Positions 14,166 through 42,432 of a stretch of 64,000 nucleotides of DNA are shown piece after piece. Below the pieces are notes generated by a model that ran no database searches, was not told where the DNA came from, and worked only from the letters and a program-made list of their open reading frames with translations. Position 1 is the stretch's first letter; each line of letters begins with the position of its first letter. The stretch is taken from the NCBI GenBank assembly GCA_963849325.1, contig CAWKHF010000002.1, positions 640,001-704,000 on the forward strand. The letters are read 5' to 3'. A program made the position numbers and the translations under genes. Origin of the DNA: an uncultured Planctomycetota bacterium. GTDB lineage: Bacteria; Planctomycetota; Planctomycetia; Gemmatales; Gemmataceae.

Positions 14166-16014
14166 TCAGGATGGCCGTTCCGGGTGGGTCAACAGGTCGC
14201 GGTGGGAGAGTTTCTTGCGGGCGCGTCCCAGGGCGGCGACGGAGAAGATTATCGGATAGAGCTTCTCGAAATACCACAGTTTGGCGAAGTAAAACCCGAT
14301 GGGCGTGGGGTCGTACAGGCCGCCGGCCTCTACCCGCTGGACGAGCCAGGCCAGGCCGTTATTCACGGCCGCCTCCGCGTCGGGCCCGGCGTCGAGCAGC
14401 ACTTCGACGGCCAGGGCCGTTTCCTCGATGCTGGACGGCGTGTCCGCGGCCCCGCCCCAGCCGCCGTCGGCGTTCTGTGCGGCCAGCAGCCAGGCGACGC
14501 CGCGGCGGGCCGGCTCGTCCGTTCATCCTATCGAGGTCGCGGTAAGCGGCCAGCACGCGGGCGGTGCCGTAGGTGGGGTTCTCGTCGTCGGGGGCGTGCT
14601 GGTTGCCGAACCAGAGGGGCAGCCAGGAGCCGTCGGGGCGCTGAGTGTCGGCGAGATAATCCAACCCCCACTCCATCGCCACGACGTCGGCAGGCCGCTT
14701 CGCGATTAAGTGTCCAGAATGTTTGGTAGAGCTTGCCGTTGGTTCTTCTATGCCAGGCCATGACGGCCCGCAGAGCGTGAGCGGTCAGGTCGCTGCCGCT
14801 GCGGTCAAAAGGCAGATGCCCCCAGCCACGGCAGAAGGTGGGCCAACCGCCGTCGCCATTTTGCAGAGCCGAGCAACCAGTCCAGCCCTCTCTTGACCGC
14901 ACGGAAGTTTTCCTCTCCCCAACCCGTGTGTTGAAGGGCCAGCAGAGCACCCGGCGTGTCGTCCGCATCCGGCACGCCGCCCGGCAGGTCGGTCCAGGCC
15001 CAGCCGCCGGGGTCGGCCCCCGTGTAGGGATGCCGCTCCTTGTATTGCTGCCCCAGCAGCCAGTCGCGCACTTCGTCGCCTTTGTCCAGCGTGTCCAGGT
15101 CGCCGGCCGCCGCCAGGGCGTTGACCGACAGCGTCGTCACCCAGGTCGCCAGGTTGGTGTCGATCGGCCAGCTGCCGTCGGGCCGCACCGACTTCACCAG
15201 GAACTCGACGCCCTTGCTGACGACCGGATGGTCGGCCCGGCCGATGCTCGCCAGGCCCAGCGTGACGAAGCTGGTCAGCGGCGTCGCTTCGAGGAAGCCG
15301 CCGCTGGACGGCTGGATGTTCTGCAGCACGCGCAGGCTCTTGCCGATGGCCAGCCGGCGCACCAAGCGCAGCCAGCGGGATTCCGCGGCGGCCGATGGTG
15401 ATAGACCGCCTGCCCGATGGCGATGAGGGCCGGCAGGGCGTAGCTGACGACGGGCAGGCGCAGGAAGCGAAACCACGACTGCGGAAAGCACGCCAGCTCG
15501 AACGGCAGCGACGGCACCTCGCTCCAGGACACCAGGCCGGCCAGGGCGCTGGTCATCAGGATCGGCACCGAGAAGGTGCGGTCCTTGCCGTAGCGGGCGC
15601 GGACCGCCTCGGCCAACTCCTCCGGCGTCTGCGCCGTAGCGCGCGTGCAGCCAGTCGCTCGGCTGCGCCGCAAGGCTGGCGGTCGTAGGTCGCGGCCGTT
15701 CCGGCGAGGTGGAAGGCGGCGCGGCAGAGCATGGTCGTCGAGATGTTGCTGAAGCTCTTGACCGTGTCGCCCCAGCCGCCGTCGGCGTTCTGATGCGCCG
15801 CGAGCCAGGCGAGGCCGCCGGCGATGAGCGGATCGAACGATCCGTGCGCGGCGGTCGCTTTCTGGACCAGGGCGAGGGCGCTGACGGCGGTGGCGGTGGA
15901 GAGGGCGGAGGTGGACAGTTCGCCGACCCAGTGGCCTTCCGGAGTGCGTTCGGCGAGCAGGGCGGCGAGGGCGGTTTGGAAGGCCGAATCCAACTGTTCA
16001 ACCGGCGTTGTCAT
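14166..16014 (-). CDS. Squalene-hopene cyclase-like class II terpene cyclase (frameshifted)
   Basis: [16 protein letters not shown] repeats ([26 protein letters not shown]), DxDD motif [15 protein letters not shown]-terminal [16 protein letters not shown]. Confidence 0.85.
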
Positions 16015-16507
16015 CGTGCGATTTATCCTGCTGTTTCTCTTCCAGTGCGGCCCGAAGCAGGGGTAATACAGCCTTATCTTTGGGGCGCCCCGCCGCCTCT
16101 TTGGTGGCTATCAAGTGGGACAGAGACAGCAGCTTTACGGGGTACGAATCGACGAGGATCTCCTTGGTGTCATCGATTACTTGCTCATACCCACCGATCG
16201 CGCTCATGACGCCCAACAGGTCCAGGGACTCTGTGCCGATTACCAAGGTGAAATTGCTTCCCAGCTGCAAGGCGCGTTCATCGAAGGTAAAAGGAAGATC
16301 GGGTGGTAAACCTCGGAGACGCGGTTGGAGTGGAGCTAGAACTTGGGCCAGCCGAGCGATGTTTCCAGGTGTTCGGCGGTAGCAAATGTCCAGATCCAGC
16401 GTCGCGACTTGAGCTCCTTGCAAGATGGCACTAACTCCGCCAACTATCACGAACTCAACCTGCCCTTACGCCAGTCTAACGATCATGTCTTTCGCGAAAG
16501 GCCACAT
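15998..16507 (-). CDS. Nucleotidyltransferase-fold toxin-like protein; in-frame TAA near the 5' end
   Basis: [30 protein letters not shown]...TLDLDICY...[15 protein letters not shown]/DxD NTase pattern. Confidence 0.72.
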
Positions 16508-16868
16508 CGTCGCGTGCCTCCCGAAGAAACTGCCTCCATCCCTCATGTCGCTCCAACAATTCGTCCGGCGTCATGGCGCGAGCCTGGGCTATCTGAGTGT
16601 AATCGACATCCCCTTGATGGCCGAGGTCGAAACCGTAAGGCTGGGTGACTCCCGGCGTAAAAGGGAGTTCGCGCGGATACCACAGGCAAGCGAGAACATC
16701 CTCCGGCGTCAAACCTTCGTATTCCGCACAAAGATCCGCCGCCGTCGCTCCGCGAGCACATCGCCCGCAGATGTATTCGACCGTGAGTCGCGTTCCTTTT
16801 ATCACCGGCTTCCCCGCCATGATCGCGGGATTGACGGTGATGCGTTCCAGTAGTTGTTTGTCCGCCAT
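16476..16868 (-). CDS. DUF433 antitoxin-like protein with C-terminal extension
   Basis: RITVNPAIMAGKPVIKGTRLTVEYI...LTPEDVLACLWY; GGGAG RBS. Confidence 0.85.
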   Translation of the reverse strand: MADKQLLERITVNPAIMAGKPVIKGTRLTVEYICGRCARGATAADLCAEYEGLTPEDVLACLWYPRELPFTPGVTQPYGFDLGHQGDVDYTQIAQARAMTPDELLERHEGWRQFLREARDDVAFRERHDR

Positions 16869-16878
16869 ATCGACTCCC

Positions 16879-17912
16879 TCAAATCTCCAGCTCATCCAGC
16901 GCATCCATCAGCTTGTCGAGGTCGTCCTTCGGCCCTTGCGGCTTGTCCGCCTGCCGCTTGGGGATGCCGACCGTCAGGCCGACCGCCTCGCCGGCCGTCG
17001 GCGACCAGTTCGCGGTCGCGCTCCTGCGCGGCCATCGCCAAGGCGTCGCCGCCGCCGAACAGCTTGCGTCAGGTCGATCTTCAAGCCGCTGATGTTGCCG
17101 ACCGGGGCGCCGGCGATGGCCGGCGTCTTGTAATCGGGGAACATGATGGCCTGTTCGGGACAGACCCGGCTGCACGCCGGGCAGCCGCGCTTGCAGTTGT
17201 CCTGGTTCTCGACGACAAGACGGTCCAGCTTGTCCACGCCGTAGACGCCGAACAGGCAGAAATCGAGGCACTCCATGCAATTCGTGCAGCGGCTGTAGTC
17301 GATCACCGGATACCAGCGGCGCCCCGGCTGTTGCAGCAGTTGCTCGGAGGAAAATTCCGTCTGGGGTTTGGCCGGTTCCTCGTCGCGGAGATAGCGGCCC
17401 AGCTGCACGAGCGTCGGGTTGCCCTGAATCCAGGTTTTCAGCTGCGTCTCGCGCCGCTCGCGGCACTCCGCGGCGATGCGGCGAACTTCCTCGACGTAGA
17501 CTCGTAGTCGCCGTGGTCGCGCAGGTCGAGAGCAGTAGATGTGGCGGTCGGGCACGTCGACGGCGCCGATGCCCTTGGGCGGCTCCGGTTCGCCGTCCTC
17601 CTCGTCCTCCTCGCCTCGGCCGGCGGCTTGATCTGGTTTTCGCCGTAGTGGCCCTTGATGCCGTCGCGGTCGAGCAGCCAGAAGGCGGCGCGCGGGAACA
17701 TCCAGCGCCAGGACGACCATGTCGCCCTGGACCGACTCCAGGAACAGCCGGCCGGTGTGCTCGGCGTCCAGGTCGTACAGGTAGGGCACGATCGACACGT
17801 CCAGGCCCGGCTCCATGATGAGGGCGGCGGCGATGCTCTCCTCCAGGGCCCGCTTGGCGGGGTTCTTGCCCTGGGCCTGCGACAGGACGACGGTCAGGCG
17901 TTGGCGGCTCAT
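16879..17912 (-). CDS. 4Fe-4S dicluster ferredoxin-domain protein (frameshifted)
   Basis: CTNCMECLDFC and CKRGCPACSRVCP. Confidence 0.85.
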
Positions 17913-17921
17913 GGTGTCAAC

Positions 17922-18385
17922 TCAATCCTCGGTGTTGATCTTGCCCTTGATCAGACGCTGCGTCTTCTCCCAGTTGTCCGCCAGGAACTGATAGTATTCG
18001 TCCACGTCCCACAGACTCGTCGCCGGCGCAGTCCATCTCGAACAGCCAGCCGGCGCCGTAGCCGTCGACGTTGATGCCGGAGGGGTCTTGCAGCAACTCC
18101 GGGTTGAACGCGACGAGCGTGCCGGCCAGCGGGGCGAACAGGTCGGAGACGGCCTTGGACGTTTCGATGTGGCCGATCTGCTGCAGCAGCTTCGACGCGG
18201 TCGCCGGCGTTGACCTGCCAGTCGAGGAAGTACACGTCCTGCATCAGCCGGACGGCGTAGGACGTGAAGCCGAAGCGCAGCCGGCCGCCCTCACAGCGGC
18301 ACCACATGTGATTGCGCGCGTAGCGCAGCCCGCCCGGCAGCACGGCGGGGAACTTGCCCATCAGGAAGGTCAGGTCGTCGGGCAT
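17922..18385 (-). CDS. Glycine cleavage H-protein-like lipoyl carrier (frameshifted)
   Basis: YARNHMW, RFGFTSYAVRLMQDVYFL, GHIETSKAVSDLFAP (lipoyl-Lys position), NVDGYGAGWLFEM. Confidence 0.82.
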
Positions 18386-18399
18386 GACTGCCACAAGTT

Positions 18400-18470
18400 C
18401 ACCGCGAGACGCGAGACGCAGGAATGACAAGAGTACATCATTCGTTCCCTGCGCCTCGCGTCTCGCGGTG
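18400..18470. repeat. Intergenic palindrome (REP-like)
   Basis: caccgcgagacgcgagacgcagg...cctgcgcctcgcgtctcgcggtg. Confidence 0.7.
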
Positions 18471-18477
18471 ATCTCTT

Positions 18478-19811
18478 TCAGGTGTAGCGCGTGCTGCGGT
18501 ACTGCGGCTCGAAGAACACCGGCAGCAGCCGATCCACCTGCAACAACCCCTCGCGCGTCAGCTCCACGCCGTCCGGCCGTGCGCGTCAGGAAGCCGCTCG
18601 CGCTTCCAGCTCGCTCGAAGCCGTCCGCGAAGCTCTCCAGGATATCCGCGCCGAACTTGTGGCGGAAGTAGGCCGGCTCCAGCCGGCCGGTTTTGAGCTG
18701 CAGGATCATCTCGCGGATCAGCCGCTGGCGCGGCGTCGACCGGCAGCGCCCGGCCCAGCGGCAGCTCGTCCCTGTCGCAGCATGCTCGACGTACTGCTCC
18801 CAGCGTATCGACGTTCTGGACGTGGACGCCGTGGACGTGGCCGAACGAGGCGACGCCGGTGCCGAACATGTCGGCCCCGTGCCACAGGCTGTCGCGGTAG
18901 ACGAAGCGGCAGCGCTGCCGGTCCTTGACCAGCGTGTAGGCGCTGGAGACCTCGTAGCCCGCCGGCGATCATCTGTCGAAGGCGTAGTTGACCCAGGCCC
19001 GCTTGGTCGGCCAGTCGGCGATCGGCCATGGCCGGCTCGTCCTGGCCGATCACCTGCAGTTCCTGCGAGAAGACGCGTGTTGAACGGCAATTCCATCTGG
19101 TAGATGGTGACGCTGTCGGGCGCCAGGGCGAGCGTCTTGCGCACGCACTGTCTTCCAGTTGTCCCACGTCTCGCCGACCATGCCGGCGATCAGGTCGATG
19201 TTGATCTGCTCGAAGCCGAGGTCGCGCGCCCAGCCGTAGGCGCGGTAGATCTCCTCTTCGAGATGGGCCCGGCCGTTGAATTCGAGGATCTTCGGGTCGA
19301 AGTTCTCGACGCCGAGGCTGAGCCGGGTCACGCCGAGCTCGCGCAGCGCTTCGAGCTTGTGCTGCTGCAGCGTGCCCGGCTCGCACTCGAAGGTCACTTC
19401 CTCGGCGCCGTCCCACGGCAGGACTGCCTGCAGCCGCTCCATCAGGCCGCGCAGCTGCGCCGGCGCTGAGGTACGACGGCGTGCCGCCGCCGAAGTAGAC
19501 GTAGTTGCAGCGGCCGGCCGCCGACGAGCGGGACGCGGCTGTACAGCTCGACTTCCTTGACCAGGGCGTCGAGGTAGGTTTCCACGTCGCGGGCGTTCTT
19601 GTCGGTGTAGACGCGGAAGTAGCAGAACTTGCAGCGCTTCCGGCAGAACGGGATGTGCAGGTACAGCCCCAGCGGCGTGCCGGGCTGCGGCGGCCGCGTC
19701 GAGGGCGGCGCGGGCGTCGGGCAGGTGGGCCGGCTTCCAGGCCGAGAACGGCGGATAGTTGGCGACGAAGTAGTTGCCCAATCCTGTAGACTCATCACAA
19801 GTCTTTGTCAT
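18478..19811 (-). CDS. HemN-like radical SAM enzyme (frameshifted; N-terminus supplied by the integrated element)
   Basis: [18 protein letters not shown] (CxxxCxxC), [41 protein letters not shown]. Confidence 0.9.
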
Positions 19812-19842
19812 ATAAGCACTTCCGGCAACAGTGAAAAACGTT

Positions 19843-19864
19843 TGACACGGAATTGACACGGAAT
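19843..19864 (+). repeat. Left arm-type integrase binding repeats, 2 x TGACACGGAAT
   Basis: Two exact tandem 11-mers; same motif recurs at 23923-23974. Confidence 0.8.
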
Positions 19865-19881
19865 GGCACCTTGCCTACACT
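19853..19881 (+). promoter_or_regulatory. Sigma70-type promoter of the integrase
   Basis: TTGACA (19853-19858), 17 bp spacer, TACACT (19876-19881). Confidence 0.7.
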
Positions 19882-19940
19882 GTAGGCAGGTGGTTTTGGG
19901 GAACCGTAAGGTACAACAGCAAGCAGCGGAGAACCGAATC

Positions 19941-21016
19941 ATGGCACGCAAGAGCCGGGTCCGTGGTGGTGGGAGGCGAGACAACAATGGTTCGTCACGC
20001 ACAAGGGCAAGCAAGTCCCTCTTGGCAAGGATGAGGCGGAAGCTCGCCGTCAATGGCACTTCCTTGAAGCAAGTGCCCAAACGCATACGGCAGGTGACGG
20101 CAACCTCTTCGTTGCCCTTGCCGACAACTTCCTTGACTGGATCAAGCGGCACAAGAAACCGAAGACGTTCAGCGTCTATCGTATCCATTTGGAGGCGTTC
20201 GGCAAGGTGCATCCTACGGTCGCTGTCCACGAATTGAAACCTCATCATGTTGACGCTGTTGTCCAGCTTCATCCGACCTGGGGCAAGAGTACGATTCGTG
20301 GGTTCATGGTGGCTGTGAACACTTGCCTGAATTGGGCAGTTAAGCAAGGGTTCACGACACGGAACCCGCTCCATCGTCGTCTGACCATCCCCGCCATCGT
20401 CAGCCGTGGCGGTCAGAAGGATGTACCGATCCCGCCGGAGGACTACGCCGTGATGCTCGCCCATGCGAACCCGAACCTGAGAGACTTCATCATCGCTTGT
20501 CGCAATACTGGCACTCGCCCTGAGAACGTAGCAGCGGCGACAGCGAAGGACTACCACAAGGAAGCGGCTTGTTGGGTTCTCGGAACGCATAAGACGGATG
20601 AGGATGGTAGCAGTCTCGTCATCCACTTGAACCCGACGATGGTAGCTTTGACGGAGCGGTTGATTGCCAAGTACCCGGAGGGTCCGTTGTTCAGGAACAA
20701 CCAAGGGAACCCCTGGCGGGATGAGGTATGGGGCAAGGCAATGGCGGGGTTGAAAAAGACGCTGGCGGCGAAGGGTATCAAGTTGAAGAGCCGGGGAATC
20801 ATGTATGGTTTCAGGCACGGTGTAGCGACCGATCTACTTGAGGCGGGAGTACCAGAGGCGCACGTTGCCGCAATCCTGGGTCACAAGTCCACGGTGATGA
20901 TCCACAAGCATTACAGCCATTTGACCAGTCGTCACGCTGCTTTGAAAGTACATCTTGAACATATCCAACCGACAGCGGGCGAAGTCACAACCGGAGATGC
21001 TTCAACCCCGCAATGA
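19941..21016 (+). CDS. Tyrosine recombinase/integrase (frameshift near codon 6)
   Basis: ATG 19941 with GGAG RBS, then shifted frame PWWWEARQQWFVTHKGKQVPLG; catalytic NTGTRPEN, HKT, YGFRHG, ILGHKS, HKHYSH. Confidence 0.93.
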
Positions 21017-21275
21017 CGGTTGTTGTCTGCCGTGGTAATCGCACAGACCCTCGCATACCTGGCGAGGGTTTTTCATTGGTACATGACGGAGCGGACGGGA
21101 ACCGGCGACGTTCCTTGTACGCCGTCACGCTGGCGGCGTAAATCACTTTCTTCGCTCCGACCGTATGCCCGTCAAGTTCGCCAGCGTCAATCAGTTTGTA
21201 GACTCTGCGACGTGAACAGCCAAGTCGTTCAGCGGCTTGCAAAGTGGTCAGTAGTTCGTTCGTGGTGCCGTTCAT
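20985..21275 (-). CDS. Excisionase-like HTH protein
   Basis: LLTTLQAAERLGCSRRRVYKLIDAGELDGHTVG; convergent with and overlapping the integrase 3' end. Confidence 0.85.
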   Translation of the reverse strand: MNGTTNELLTTLQAAERLGCSRRRVYKLIDAGELDGHTVGAKKVIYAASVTAYKERRRFPSAPSCTNEKPSPGMRGSVRLPRQTTTVIAGLKHLRL

Positions 21276-21406
21276 GGTCCGGCACTTCTACGCCGTTTTG
21301 TTGACTGTCTCAAGTGAGGGTCATCCACTTTGTTTGGCAAAGCTATGGTCGGTCTGATTAGATAATCCACGGCGGCGACAATACAAACCATGAACAAAGG
21401 AACAGC

Positions 21407-21769
21407 GTGATAACAGCCGAAAAAGTGATTTCTGCATTCAAGACAAAGTACCCTGTCGTGAGGTATCAAGACTTCTATTTGGCGGGGAAAAACTACCTGA
21501 ACATACGGAGCAAGTCCGAGGCGAGCTACCATCGGAAGACAAAGCGGTATGAGTTCGGTATGCCCAGACGGGATTATGACAGGTATCTCCGTATGGTCAA
21601 AGAAGGGCGACAGGTGTACTCTCTGATAATCGAGAGCAAGTCCGACACCTTGTACATTGCCAAGCTCTCAGACTTGGCGGCGTATGCTCGGATGTACGAT
21701 GGTGACAAAGTGGACAAGGGCGGGAGCGTATTCCTGCCAAGAGACAGGTACAGGAAAGTGGAAGTCTGA
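21407..21769 (+). CDS. Basic hypothetical protein (possible degenerate nuclease fold)
   Basis: AAAGGAA RBS before GTG; 120 aa K/R/Y-rich ORF upstream of Rep. Confidence 0.6.
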   Translation: MITAEKVISAFKTKYPVVRYQDFYLAGKNYLNIRSKSEASYHRKTKRYEFGMPRRDYDRYLRMVKEGRQVYSLIIESKSDTLYIAKLSDLAAYARMYDGDKVDKGGSVFLPRDRYRKVEV

Positions 21770-21779
21770 AAAAGAAGAT

Positions 21780-21804
21780 GCCCGGTTGTGTTCAGCAACC
21801 GGGC
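21780..21804. other. Hairpin between orphan ORF and Rep
   Basis: gcccggttg-tgttcag-caaccgggc, 9 bp stem. Confidence 0.5.
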
Positions 21805-21835
21805 GGTGATTTGATTCACAGAAGCGGCGGCAACC

Positions 21836-22618
21836 ATGAACCACGAAACAGCAATCTATGGTAGTATCCCAAATCAGCTTTTTCAACAGCAACCGGAGTG
21901 CGGTCGCAAGTTTGGTTACCGGCAACCGCATGGATGGACTACGCTACTCGGCTATTGGCGGGAGTCATCCAAGCTATGCCAGTTGATCGACTTGAACAGC
22001 CAGTTGCGGAAGCGGGACTACACCTGGGCGGTATCTCTGAATATCGAGCATGTACTTGACGTGGCGGAAGTCAAGCGAGTCTGGAAACATATCTGCCGTG
22101 AATTGCGTCGGCGAGATGTAGTGGCTCTTTGGCTTCGTGAACCTTCACCTGAGAACCACGTCAACTACCATCTCCTAATCGCCAGCGATCAGATGAAACT
22201 TGAATTGGCGGATGCCATTGACGCTAGTATCCCCGAAGGTATCAAGCACCACAAGCAGATTGACGCCATTCACGATGAATGGAGCCATGCCAGATACATC
22301 GTCAAGGCGAAGGTCAAGGCATACGTTGACGGCAAGTTTCTTCTCGACAAGTACAAGGACAAGCGGCTGTTGTTCGTCAAGAAAAGCGGTCTGCAAAAGT
22401 ACGGCGTCATTGGTCCATTCTGGGTTCGTCCGGTAGGCGAGCTATGGCAGACCATCATCGCCAGAGAGAAGCGGATTGCTGACGGACTGGAATCGCCGGG
22501 GGTACGAGCGGAAGTGGAACACCTGTACGAGCTACTTGACGGCACGGTATCGAGACGACAGATAGAGCGGTCGCTGGGGTTCCACGGTGGCACCGTGGGG
22601 AAGGTCGCTACACTATAG
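21836..22618 (+). CDS. HUH-superfamily rolling-circle replication initiator-like protein
   Basis: Motif I-like WAVSLNI, WKHICRELRRR...LWLRE, motif II variant HVNYHLLI, motif III ARYIVK. Confidence 0.7.
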   Translation: MNHETAIYGSIPNQLFQQQPECGRKFGYRQPHGWTTLLGYWRESSKLCQLIDLNSQLRKRDYTWAVSLNIEHVLDVAEVKRVWKHICRELRRRDVVALWLREPSPENHVNYHLLIASDQMKLELADAIDASIPEGIKHHKQIDAIHDEWSHARYIVKAKVKAYVDGKFLLDKYKDKRLLFVKKSGLQKYGVIGPFWVRPVGELWQTIIAREKRIADGLESPGVRAEVEHLYELLDGTVSRRQIERSLGFHGGTVGKVATL

Positions 22619-22714
22619 GTGGTATGCAAAATTGGAACACAACCGAAGAGGTTGAGCAACCAGGAACAAGCGGGACAGCGGGAACCTCGCTACACCATAG
22701 GTAGTATGCCAAGA

Positions 22715-22972
22715 CAGCGGTGACAGGTACATCAAGATCAGCGGTGACAAGTACCACTTCATCAAGATCAGCGGTGACAGGTACATCAAGATCAGCGGTG
22801 ACAAGTACCACTTCATCAAGATCAGCGGTGACAGGTACATCAAGATCAGCGGTGACAGGTACATCAAGATCAGCGGTGACAGGTACATCAAGATCAGCGG
22901 TGACAGGTACATCAAGATCAGCGGTGACAGGTACATCAAGATCAGCGGTGACAGGTACATCAAGATCAGCGG
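22715..22972. repeat. Tandem array: 8 x 24-bp and 2 x 30-bp units
   Basis: A=cagcggtgacaggtacatcaagat, B=cagcggtgacaagtaccacttcatcaagat; order A B A B A A A A A A plus partial. Confidence 0.95.
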
Positions 22973-23699
22973 CTTCTTTGGGTTGTTTCGTTTCGTGGAC
23001 CGTGCCAGCCCGCTGTGTACGTTTTCGACAAATTGGAAGTGATTTCAGGCAAAGTACCCTGTATCTGACGTTATTAACGCCATAGGTCCGTGGTATCTCC
23101 CCATCATCTCCGATACTCCCTTGTCCCGATGATGCCATTCTGAACGCCTAGAATCGCTTCTGAGGCGGGTTGCGGTCCCCAAAGAGGGGATAGGGCTGTC
23201 TATCGAGCCGGAAAGCGACAGCGGAGCGACGGGGAGGGCGGCGAGTAGTACCTGGGTGACGGGGGGATAAGGGGAGCGAAAACATTGTCGCGCCGTTTCG
23301 CCTGACCGGCTTCAACTCCGTGTGCGCTATTAAGCAGCATTTTAATTGTTTCGGGGCGGAGAGATGTACCTGGCGGTCATGGTCCTGCCGGTCTCGGTCA
23401 AGGTGGTCGTGGTCGTGGTCAAGGCGGCGAGATGTACCTGGCGGTCATGGTCGGTCAGTGTTCGGGGGTCGATCCCGTTACGGGATTTCCCGCAACGGGC
23501 TGTATGGGTTCGTGGCGAGAATGCCCCCTCTGACGCCTCCCTGTCGCTTCCACGGTGACGGCGAGAACCGATCCGAGTATCGGGCTGTCTATCGAACCGG
23601 AAGCGGCGTAGGGGCGACGGGGAGGGCGGCGAGATGTACCTGGGAAACGGCGGCGAGCATCCGGTTGAAGGCGGCGGCGAGTAGTACCTGGCTATCGTG

Positions 23700-23880
23700 G
23701 TCGAGATCGTGGTCATGGTCGAGATGTCGAGATCGTGGTCATGGTCGAGATGTCGAGATCGTGGTCATGGTCGAGATGTCGAGATCGTGGTCATGGTCGA
23801 GATGTCGAGATCGTGGTCATGGTCGAGATGTCGAGATCGTGGTCATGGTCGAGATGTCGAGATCGTGGTCGAGATCGTGG
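23700..23880. repeat. Tandem array: 6 x 26-bp unit plus partial
   Basis: Unit gtcgagatcgtggtcatggtcgagat. Confidence 0.95.
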
Positions 23881-23922
23881 AACCACAGCGGTTAGTTAGT
23901 GGAAAAGAAGTTGCCCGAACCT

Positions 23923-23974
23923 TGACACGGAATTGACACAGAACCCCCCGAAATGACACGGAATTGCACGGAAA
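23923..23974 (+). repeat. Right arm-type integrase binding repeats (4 copies)
   Basis: tgacacggaat, tgacacagaac, tgacacggaat, tgcacggaaa. Confidence 0.8.
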
Positions 23975-24019
23975 ACGGGGCGAGACAGGCGAACAGTACC
24001 ATCCACAAAGACTGTATCT

Positions 24020-24106
24020 CTAGGACTTTACGGCGATGAAGACTTGTACACGGTTGACGACGAAGTAATTGCCGAGACCCGTCTTTTCTTGCGTGGCTTC
24101 GGTCAT
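24020..24106 (-). pseudogene. Stranded native 5' end of the radical SAM gene
   Basis: Reads [16 protein letters not shown] then runs into element DNA (VNRVQVFIAVKS*); matches [13 protein letters not shown] of the gene at 18478..19811. Confidence 0.88.
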
Positions 24107-24270
24107 CGATGCACCCTGGATCGAGGCGGGGAGGCAGGTTGGCGAGACGGCGGATACCTTCTTCTATCGTACATCGCGGGCCCGGCGAAGCAAGTCGCCG
24201 ATGCGCGGGACCAGCGGGAGACAGTCAACCCCTCTTCCCCCGATACGCCTCCGCTCCTTATTCTGACAGC

Positions 24271-25643
24271 ATGCAACGCCCTCATCTGCTGTTCGTGACG
24301 GGGAAGCTGGCCGAGCCTTCGCTGCGGCACATGCTGGACGAGCTGGCGCCGCGCCGGCTTTGACTTCAGCGTGGCCGTGCTGCCGATCACGGTCGTCGCC
24401 CTGGCCACAACCCCCTGGATTGCGCCGCCATTTGACGGTCCCTTCGGAGATCGATCGCGTCATTCTCCCCGGTCTCTGTCAGGGAGAACTGGGGCCGGTG
24501 CGCGCGTTCGGCGTTCCCGTGGAGCGCGGCCCTGGCGACCTGCGCGACCTGCCGGACTTCTTCCGCACCTCCAGAGAGCCGTGCAGCGATTACGGATCTT
24601 ACGACATCGCCATTCTCGCCGAGATCAATCACGCTCCCCGTCTGAACCGTCCGGACATCCTGCGCGAAGCCGTCGCTCTGCACGCCGACGGTGCCGACGT
24701 CATCGACATCGGCTGCGATCCGGGTTCGACGTGGGCGGGCGTCGCCGATACGGTTCGGGCGTTACGCGACGCGGGTCTGCGCGTCTCCATCGATAGTTTT
24801 GATCCGCGCGAGGTCGAGGCGGCGGTCGCCGCCGGGGCCGAACTGGTGCTGAGCGTCAACAGCAGCAATGTGTCCGCGGCTCGCTCGTGGGGCTGCGAGG
24901 TCGTCGTGCTGCCCGACGTGCTCGCCACGCTGGAAGGACTGGATGGCACCGTCGAGAAGCTACAATCCTGGGGGGTAAAGTTTCGGATCGATCCGGTGAT
25001 CGAGCCGATTGGCCTGGGCTTTGCTGCCTCGCTGGGACGCTATCTCGAAGTGCGGCGCCGTTACCCCGATGCCGAGATGCTGATGGGGGTTGGCAACCTC
25101 ACCGAGTTGACCGACGTGGATTCCGCCGGCATCAATGTGCTCCTGCTCGGCTTCTGCCAGGAAGTCGGCATTCGCAGCGTGCTGACGACGCAGGTCATCA
25201 ACTGGTGCCGCAGCTGCGTCCGCGAATTGGATCGGGCACGCCGGCTGGTGTACCATGCCTGTACGCGCCGCGTGCTGCCCAAGCACGTCGAGCCGGACCT
25301 ACTCTTGCTGCGCGATCCGAAGCTGCGCACGCATGGCGAAGCGATGCTCAGCGATTTGGCCTCCCGGATCGCGGATCGCAACTTCCGCCTGTTCGCCGAG
25401 CGCGGCCTGCTGCACGTCCTCAATAACCAGATGTTCCTGCAAGGCGGTGATCCGTTCGCGCTGTTCGAGCAGATGCAGCAGCGCGCGGACATCGATCCCG
25501 CGCACGCTTTCTATCTCGGCTACGAGATGGCCAAGGCGGTGACCGCGTTGACGCTGGGCAAGAACTACACGCAGGACCAGGCGCTGCGTTGGGGCTTTCT
25601 GACCGTGAAGGAGCGTTCCCGTCACGATGGCCCCCGTGATTGA
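24271..25643 (+). CDS. Dihydropteroate synthase-related protein (DUF6513 / H4MPT-pathway Orf20-like; frameshifted 5' end)
   Basis: MQRPHLLFVTGKLAEPSL, GADVIDIGC, VSIDSFD, GVGNLTELTDVDSAG, HAFYLGYEMAKA...NYTQDQAL. Confidence 0.78.
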
Positions 25644-30871: not shown

Positions 30872-30938
30872 GTTTAGCCGCGACGCGCAACGGAGCGCGG
30901 GCGTCCTGCCCGCGCTCCGCTGCGCGTCGCGGCTAAAC
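30872..30938. repeat. REP-like palindrome, family B
   Basis: gtttagccgcgacgcgca...tgcgcgtcgcggctaaac; near-identical to 44688-44754. Confidence 0.9.
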
Positions 30939-30961
30939 GAGAAGGAAGAGGTGGACCCATT

Positions 30962-35336: not shown

Positions 35337-35395
35337 TCGGAGCCCGAAGCGTGAGCGAGGGAAGCCCTTTCCCTCGCTCACGCTTCGGGCTCCGA
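35337..35395. repeat. REP-like palindrome, family A variant
   Basis: tcggagcccgaagcgtgagcgagggaa...ttccctcgctcacgcttcgggctccga. Confidence 0.85.
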
Positions 35396-35458
35396 CGACA
35401 TCGTCTACAATGGAAGAATATCGCCGTCGTCCATCCCTCACCCGGAGACCATGGGAAC

Positions 35459-42091: not shown

Positions 42092-42387
42092 GGTCGTCCT
42101 TCTTCCGCCGGCCGCCTGGGGAGTGGGGTGCCGGTCCCTCCGATCCTACTACTCGGCGATTATACCGCGAGCCTCGGCGGGAGTAAGCACAAGCCGGACC
42201 CGAACCGCCCCGGTCCCCTCGTCCTCCGCGCTTCCGCCGTCAGCCCCGGCACCGCCGGCATCACCCGCGGCACAATCGTTCCCTGCTTATCCCCTTTTCC
42301 GGAAACATCCCCCAAGATCGTATCTCCCCGCGCCCGATACATTCCATGCAGCCTGGCATTGCACCTCGGAGTTGTGTCCTCGTGTGG

Positions 42388-42432
42388 AGCGCGGGCGTCC
42401 CGCCCGCACCGTGCGGGCGGGACGCCCGCGCT
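42388..42432. repeat. Perfect palindrome related to the family B core
   Basis: agcgcgggcgtcccgcccgcac-c-gtgcgggcgggacgcccgcgct. Confidence 0.8.

Follow-up and report, generated by a model that had tools for sequence, protein, structure and literature searches.

In a 64,000-nt stretch of the genome of an uncultured Planctomycetota bacterium (Gemmatales; Gemmataceae; GenBank assembly GCA_963849325.1, contig CAWKHF010000002.1, positions 640,001-704,000 of the forward strand), hereafter referred to as the window, a minus-strand gene of the HemN family of radical-SAM proteins is split near its 5' end by a small insert. The explanation that we regard as very likely is that this insert is a site-specific integrative element that entered through a 10-bp core and supplies the interrupted gene with a substitute start. 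According to this scenario, a small element encoding a tyrosine integrase, an excisionase-like helix-turn-helix protein and an ORF2/G2P-like initiator would have recombined with the chromosome through the core. The attP arm of the element would carry an in-frame substitute consisting of a motif resembling a ribosome-binding site (RBS), an ATG and 12 codons, and the integration would have displaced the native promoter together with the first 16 codons, now seen as a 28-codon stub, leaving a complete hybrid gene behind. The assembly that contains the window represents an 8.16-Mb genome in 14 contigs with a marker completeness of 84.7%; it contains many single-base insertions, and confidence in single bases is below usual.

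The insert is 4,295 bp long (19773-24057 plus one copy of the core), which is also the distance between the two core copies (table 1). The 10-bp sequence TACTTCGTCG is the sole block of exact identity between both junctions, or 21 nt with two mismatches when extended, and it occupies codons 13-16 (N-Y-F-V) of the HemN-family gene. Translation from the element-borne minus-strand ATG at 19811 yields MTKTCDES and proceeds in frame into the conserved motif of the gene, and the native start, a minus-strand ATG at 24106, opens with MTEATQEK and runs to a stop codon at 24022-24020. An earlier interpretation of the same DNA, made without database searches (the sequence-only reading), had placed both starts exactly here, each of them eight residues ahead of TGLG, and had pointed out that the T-G-L codons differ between the copies (ACA GGA TTG in the element, ACG GGT CTC in the stub) at positions outside the identity block; all of this holds. 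Over the five codons immediately 5' of the core (T-G-L-G-N) the two copies differ at five bases, all of them synonymous. The start and the first 12 codons of the rebuilt gene (19811 to about 19773) are element DNA, the remainder being host DNA. The G+C content amounts to 50-57% between the junctions, compared with 65-70% in the flanks, and the element is well delimited and recently acquired. No second copy was found in the 8.16-Mb genome, where only a 95-nt, 74% match (contig C5) to the region of the 26-nt tandem array was retrieved.

Evidence for an insertion comes from relatives in which the site is uninterrupted. Queries with the gene body and with the sequence on the right-hand side of the stub were run separately against 30 relatives, and we read the sequence of the site at 11 loci, nine from congeners and two from other genera. 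At all 11 of them, the native start is preceded directly by the region found upstream of the stub and followed directly by the gene body, and joining the two host flanks of the window restores exactly the sequence that the relatives have around the core. Between the orphaned upstream region in the window and the DNA that immediately precedes the intact gene in congeners, the identity is 74-88%. As read from the DNA (for the congener G004 also from a translation), six of the nine congeners start with exactly MTEATQEK, and the native leaders vary from 7 to 11 residues across the relatives. Because the relatives are uninterrupted and match the joined flanks, the stub represents the ancestral start, and MTKTCDES was brought by the insert. 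The central proposition of the sequence-only reading, i.e. that an element splits the gene and rebuilds its start from its own DNA, is therefore borne out by the empty sites and the in-frame ATG at 19811. That the native start was left stranded at 24106 agrees also with the orthologue N-termini, MTEATQEK being that of six of the nine congeners. The reverse assignment, in which MTKTCDES would be native and the stub would derive from the element, can be excluded, since it is the stub, along with its upstream region, that matches congeners, MTKTCDES being flanked by low-G+C element DNA; a chance match as the origin of the stub, the possibility that the sequence-only reading had itself set against its proposal, is excluded by the 11 empty sites and by the codon pattern described below.

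Further support is provided by a clade of integrases with a single target. When we searched 267 genomes of the order with the integrase sequence (E up to 1e-20), 130 of them returned some match, only eight of these matches being close (54-63% identity, from six other genera of Gemmataceae) and the next ones being 38% identical or less. The same eight, labelled as metagenome-assembled genomes of Limnoglobus, Fimbriiglobus, Gemmataceae and Gemmatales, were recovered by a pattern scan over 185,579 species representatives, which employed an alignment of the window integrase (residues from 19988 onward) with seven relatives. No close relative of the integrase was found in the 10 congeners searched, five of which gave a match at E up to 1e-20, with the listed matches at most 38% identical. 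Every one of the eight close integrase genes is situated about 150 nt from the start of an orthologous HemN-like gene and faces away from it, whereas that gene is present within the 1.5-kb flanks at none of the 21 fetched loci of more distant integrases. Whether related integrases use the same target, a check put forward with the sequence-only reading, is answered in the affirmative by these eight loci.

The eight related elements all carry an in-frame start of their own, which reads MTG(V/L)(E/D)QEK or MTRLEQEK and which lacks an ATG in a single case, where GTG is the probable start codon. Five related loci span the target from end to end, and in all five the rebuilt gene gives one match over its full length. 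We searched for displaced native stubs in seven of the eight genomes with close integrase relatives (G142 fell outside this search) and found them in six: two occur on the same contig as the rebuilt gene, so that the elements measure about 7.1 and 8.4 kb; the remaining four are on other contigs, where each is a single match with zero control matches. No displaced stub was found in the genome G079, which is 93% complete. As judged by tblastn, the related elements have only the integrase gene (int) and the excisionase-like gene in common, and in each of those examined the stub, the excisionase-like gene and the target gene are co-oriented, with int opposed to them. The 7.1-kb element (genome G175, contig C146, 2200-9220) additionally encodes an HNH endonuclease, a Rep-like protein with a weak match to PF23343, an ArsR regulator, a SulP/STAS transporter and a beta-carbonic anhydrase; each of these genes has the orientation of the target gene.

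The availability of several element/stub pairs allowed us to compare the codons that precede the core. In the block of eight codons before it (Q-E-K-T-G-L-G-N), all 21 codons that differ between the element and the native stub in the six pairs other than that of the window are synonymous. The window pair has seven differing codons in the block, five of them synonymous and the other two replacing Q with D and K with S. Differences in the 4-5 codons nearer the start are, by contrast, almost wholly non-synonymous. As read from the sequences, the eight element copies from outside the window differ among themselves within the block only synonymously. Judged from these patterns, the element-borne codons show purifying selection on the protein they encode, as the sequence-only reading had argued from the window alone, and from such selection we infer that the hybrid gene is translated. 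The element copies retain their own leader across host genera, and the leader has therefore been inherited with the element, not recaptured from each host. The related suggestion that the substitute N-terminus has the same length as the native one proved true of the window and untrue as a rule: the numbers of residues before TGLG in the element and in the native copy are 8/8, 8/8, 8/8, 8/9, 8/11, 8/11 and about 11/9, so that equality, holding in only three of the seven pairs, is excluded as a constraint.

Several observations weigh against the explanation favoured here. The two residues that the window substitute alters (Q to D and K to S) are otherwise conserved; the frame of int changes near 19960-19987, close to its 5' end; and the gene body in the window is not a single open frame, for, compared with intact orthologues, about 18 single bases are inserted in it. 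Finally, with a sigma-70-type consensus, in a phylum whose promoter rules are poorly known, no gene-facing promoter was detected in the spacer between the rebuilt gene and int in any of the four elements scanned (that of the window and three relatives), the sole consensus site in the spacer (19853-19881 in the window, 10 of 12 matches) facing int. Transcriptional takeover of the cluster by the element, one of the two outcomes offered by the sequence-only reading, is conjectural. A gene-facing promoter might be provided by the opposite strand of the AT-rich box in question, at a site that departs from the consensus. Alternatively, transcription may read through into the gene, either from the excisionase-like gene, whose orientation is that of the target, or from the native promoter; a terminator-like hairpin (21804-21780) faces the direction of read-through from the latter. 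Considering that the strand arrangement is constant in the related elements and that the spacer lacks a gene-facing consensus promoter, one could even imagine a two-way regulatory swap, common to this family of elements, with the host promoter and the stub driving the excisionase strand and the host cluster placed under the control of the element. Host signals that switch on the HemN-like cluster would then promote excision, and the rebuilt gene and the cluster would depend on element transcription, for instance on transcription that runs on from the excisionase-like gene across antisense int. We consider such a swap unlikely.

The missing promoter would also suit an excision-dependent switch, in which the gene or the cluster would be silent or element-controlled until the element leaves, and so would the undecayed state of the native promoter region and stub and the presence of an excisionase-like gene. 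The models for such a switch are the sigK skin element, the nifD element and the comK prophage, whose target genes are non-functional until excision. These elements reside, as here, inside a protein gene and carry their own recombinase, but the broken frame that defines them has no counterpart in our case: the junction reads through, and in all five relatives mentioned above the rebuilt gene has its full length. Purifying selection on the element codons requires translation, and the RBS-like motif and the ATG are conserved, with AAGGTG found 5-6 nt before the ATG across the related elements and GGAAGTG as its version in the window. Likewise, in the analogous and experimentally tested case of elements inserted in the gene dusA, the target is described as staying expressed from the element (PMC8409611). 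An excision switch of the sigK skin or nifD type, which the sequence-only reading had offered as one of its two outcomes, is accordingly hard to maintain when the frame is rebuilt and no excision is needed to have it intact, and we deem it quite improbable.

The one-base insertions might alternatively be taken as a sign of decay, the target being a true pseudogene, the element an immobile dead remnant and the rebuilt start now without function. Their density is indeed the highest in the region 18001-19780 (14 and 6 per bin, as opposed to 0-8 per kb in other comparable parts of the window), and the frame break near the 5' end of int would fit as well. However, insertions outnumber deletions in these bins by 20 to 2, which is the opposite of the usual, deletional bias of decaying sequences, and the gene does not show any excess of substitutions, being about 84% identical to its congeneric orthologues, just as the neighbouring genes are. 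Of 189 differences, 125 fall at third codon positions (106 synonymous versus 52 non-synonymous codons), and once the insertions are removed, no stop codon is left in the comparison with the congener G006 and one in that with G004. Frame breaks of this sort are not confined to the target, occurring also at the 5' end of int and in the pterin-binding gene at 24273, and the assembly resembles an unpolished long-read consensus, of which 14 contigs and yet a completeness of 84.7% would be expected. Given the excess of insertions, the identity of about 84%, the third-position bias and the lack of a stop against G006, the insertions in the gene body are likely consensus errors, and decay is a very unlikely account of them. 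The element's own open reading frames (ORFs) are mostly unbroken, and the insertions cluster beside it; the cluster may reflect uneven polishing next to a polymorphic insertion. It is, finally, extremely improbable that the similarity beyond the core only reflects what the recombinase needs in its DNA, i.e. core-type binding sites of attP and attB, because even though the similarity is limited to about 25 nt beside the core and tyrosine integrases need similar sequences around the crossover region, such a need would conserve bases and not codon meaning, whereas 26 of the 28 differing codons in the seven pairs are synonymous, among them the two-base leucine changes TTG/CTC and TTA/CTG, and the eight element copies outside the window vary in the block without altering the protein.

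The site-specific element and its surroundings are summarized in table 1.

Table 1. Coordinates of the integrative element, its junctions and the rebuilt target gene in the window.
Feature	Position	Strand or sequence	Basis or remarks
Core, gene-side junction (attL-like)	19763..19772	TACTTCGTCG on coding strand	Repeat analysis, empty-site comparison
Core, stub-side junction (attR-like)	24058..24067	TACTTCGTCG on coding strand	Repeat analysis, empty-site comparison
Rebuilt HemN-family radical-SAM gene	18440..19811	-	Translation, Radical_SAM Pfam matches on frame pieces; 3' end approximate
Displaced native start, 28-codon stub ORF	24020..24106	-	16 native codons, then element-derived codons and stop
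Orphaned native upstream region, presumed native promoter and RBS	24107..24200	-	Now aimed into the element
Spacer between rebuilt gene and int	19812..19941		RBS-like motif, repeats, int-directed promoter-like site, palindrome
Tyrosine integrase gene (int)	19942..21016	+	PF00589, PHROG 1
Excisionase-like HTH_17 gene	20985..21275	-	PF12728 (E 1.7e-9); PHROG families of excisionases and recombination directionality factors
ORF of 120 amino acids	21407..21769	+	No family match
ORF of 260 amino acids, probable rolling-circle replication initiator (ORF2/G2P-like)	21836..22618	+	PF23343 via homologues
Tandem array, 24-nt unit, 10.5 copies	22710..22972		Repeat analysis
Tandem array, 26-nt unit, 6.6 copies, 100% matches	23700..23870		Repeat analysis
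Decayed internal copy of gene-side junction	23885..23922		74% identity over 38 nt to 19748-19785
Arm-type-like repeats, far element end	23922..23974		GACACGGAATTG at 23924 and 23955

The product of int matches PF00589 (E 6e-12; 46.1 bits, with the cut-off at 27.1) and the PHROG 1 integrase family (E 8.9e-42), its matches in NCBIfam being restricted to weak ones of the XerC/XerD type, all far under the cut-offs. Residues invariant in the alignment of the window integrase with its seven relatives include R172/R177, R276-H277, H308-Y309 and H311, which may correspond to canonical catalytic positions of tyrosine recombinases (an Arg, a His-x-x-Arg-type box and a C-terminal Tyr). The excisionase-like gene converges on int, overlapping its 3' end, and has a homologue at the same position in the related elements. 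The 120-residue protein has no match in Pfam, NCBIfam or PHROGs and no counterpart in the related elements. The 260-residue protein, taken alone, likewise has no direct match in these three collections; 15 homologues were found, and in the alignment of its homologues 12 of the 16 members match PF23343 (E up to 0.01, best 1.4e-7), and its atlas feature score to PF23343 clusters is 0.97. It is thus probably a rolling-circle replication initiator of the ORF2/G2P-like kind. Both tandem arrays, whose units repeat perfectly or almost so, are located 3' of this Rep-like gene and could be iteron-like sites or simple satellites.

The non-coding parts of the element include several repeats. In the spacer, two tandem repeats GACACGGAAT(T/G)G are found at 19844 and 19855, next to a palindrome with 7-nt arms (19870-19890). 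With at most one mismatch allowed, GACACGGAAT(T/G)G has four copies, all on one strand and distributed over both ends of the insert, and it occurs nowhere else in the 64 kb; such a placement would fit arm-type integrase sites, for which these repeats are candidates. The decayed internal copy of the gene-side junction reads G-S-G-N-F-F-S-T-N-stop-P-L on the coding strand. It keeps five host-type codons of the gene body past the core, is devoid of the 56 nt that hold the ATG, and directly adjoins the arm-like repeat at 23922. Either an earlier integration or the event by which the 5' end of the target was originally captured may have left it behind.

As regards the target gene, the intact orthologue from G004 comprises the Radical_SAM and HemN_C domains, and its score against the HemN equivalog TIGR00538 (186.9 bits) stays below the cut-off of 324.95, as do its scores against the NCBIfam models for HutW/ChuW, HemZ and HemW. 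By these domain matches, the identity of the gene is established at the level of the superfamily only. Downstream of it, also on the minus strand, the window contains a small ORF, genes for a 4Fe-4S protein, a DUF433 protein and a prenyltransferase-like protein with squalene-cyclase repeats, and, further on, a DUF116 gene and an ORF with MFS and glycosyltransferase domains. The region 8.8-19.8 kb is colinear with congeners save for the window-only part at 16.0-16.9 kb; this patch (16000-16900) is low in G+C (56-58%), bears a DUF433 gene and is missing from the five congeners compared. What the sequence-only reading had called an operon of about 11 kb therefore stands as a co-directional cluster syntenic within the genus, and as a cluster only. 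The native start is preceded in four other genera by a beta-propeller gene that ends at a distance of 35-110 nt, and the target is therefore not clearly the first gene of a unit there.

Synteny is lost upstream of the target, where merely about 150 nt before the native start are shared with congeners. The divergent pterin-binding/DUF6513 gene that follows in the window (24273 onward) is found on other contigs in relatives, and in G002 this right-hand neighbour is about 1 Mb away from the target gene. A breakpoint of rearrangement thus adjoins the attachment site. Elsewhere in the window, three stretches of roughly 50-70 nt (30872-30940, 35337-35398 and 42385-42432) have matches of 80-98% identity, in either orientation, on numerous contigs from each of the five congeners, and they look like members of a dispersed palindromic repeat family.

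The element-free congener G004 deserves separate mention. Upstream of its intact gene (at 2144), the contig C53 contains, at 25-820, a truncated N-terminus of an integrase of the same type, followed by an element-type spacer and a 70-codon copy of the 5' end of the target. The first eight residues of this copy are the native MTEATQEK, written in other codons, and its core is mutated (G-K-S-F-V). Then come two toxin-antitoxin-like pairs, the native promoter and the intact gene, and a DUF433 gene with a PIN-like partner adjoins the remnant. The whole has the appearance of a relative of the element that has decayed; we were unable to obtain this arrangement by a simple integration.

The arrangement as such is of a type already known from dusA and prfC, the likeness drawn here being one of arrangement. 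Elements specific to dusA, such as IMEVchUSA3, insert in the 5' end of dusA with the reading frame restored (Durand et al. 2021, PMC8409611), i.e. they too are tyrosine-integrase elements that enter the 5' end of a conserved protein gene and alter its N-terminus. The altered DusA N-terminus is reported to equal the original one in length and to be 61% identical to it over 35 residues, and its effect on the protein is left as a question in that case as well (PMC8409611). The two cases differ in the target (a tRNA-dihydrouridine synthase of Gammaproteobacteria as against a HemN-family radical-SAM gene of Gemmataceae) and in the gene complement, the dusA elements being mobilised by IncC plasmids whereas here only int, excisionase-like and Rep-like genes and one ORF without a match are present. 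They differ also in that the new promoter was demonstrated for dusA by a lacZ fusion (PMC8409611), while the only consensus site of our spacer faces int. SXT/R391 elements integrate in the 5' end of prfC (PMC5812530, PMC2791158, PMC3715440, PMC10866021), and SXT likewise rebuilds its target (PMC8409611); these are, however, self-transmissible elements of roughly 100 kb from Gammaproteobacteria with another target, in contrast to a 4.3-kb element.

More distant parallels are found in the streptococcal integrative and conjugative elements, large conjugative elements of Firmicutes that use the 5' ends of ftsK, rbgA and ebfC and some of which replace the upstream promoter region (Ambroset et al. 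2016, PMC4701971). In the account given there, they leave the protein's N-terminus unmodified (PMC4701971), whereas six of the first eight residues change in the window. Islands in tRNA and tmRNA genes (Islander, PMC4383910) resemble our case in that the target is split and regenerated by the island, with the displaced fragment at the far end, but they restore the 3' end of an RNA gene, for which, unlike here, a start codon, an RBS and a promoter need not be supplied. Among the titles listed in the open-access literature searched, we found no comparable element in Planctomycetota or at hemN. Within these bounds, the element is the first of this sort that we came across for the phylum and the target gene.

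On the practical side, annotation pipelines will be inconsistent in how they call the stub and the hybrid start, and a compact module of int, an excisionase gene and attachment sites with a known chromosomal site could be a useful tool for a phylum with few genetic tools. The nine independent copies of the element constitute a natural experiment, in which codons 6-13 are under purifying selection and the first five drift. Taken together, the strategy of rebuilding the start of a target gene, documented in Gammaproteobacteria and Firmicutes, is now extended to Planctomycetota, where a clade of integrases whose target is fixed, namely the N-Y-F-V/I codons of the HemN-like gene, is present in at least seven genera of Gemmataceae.

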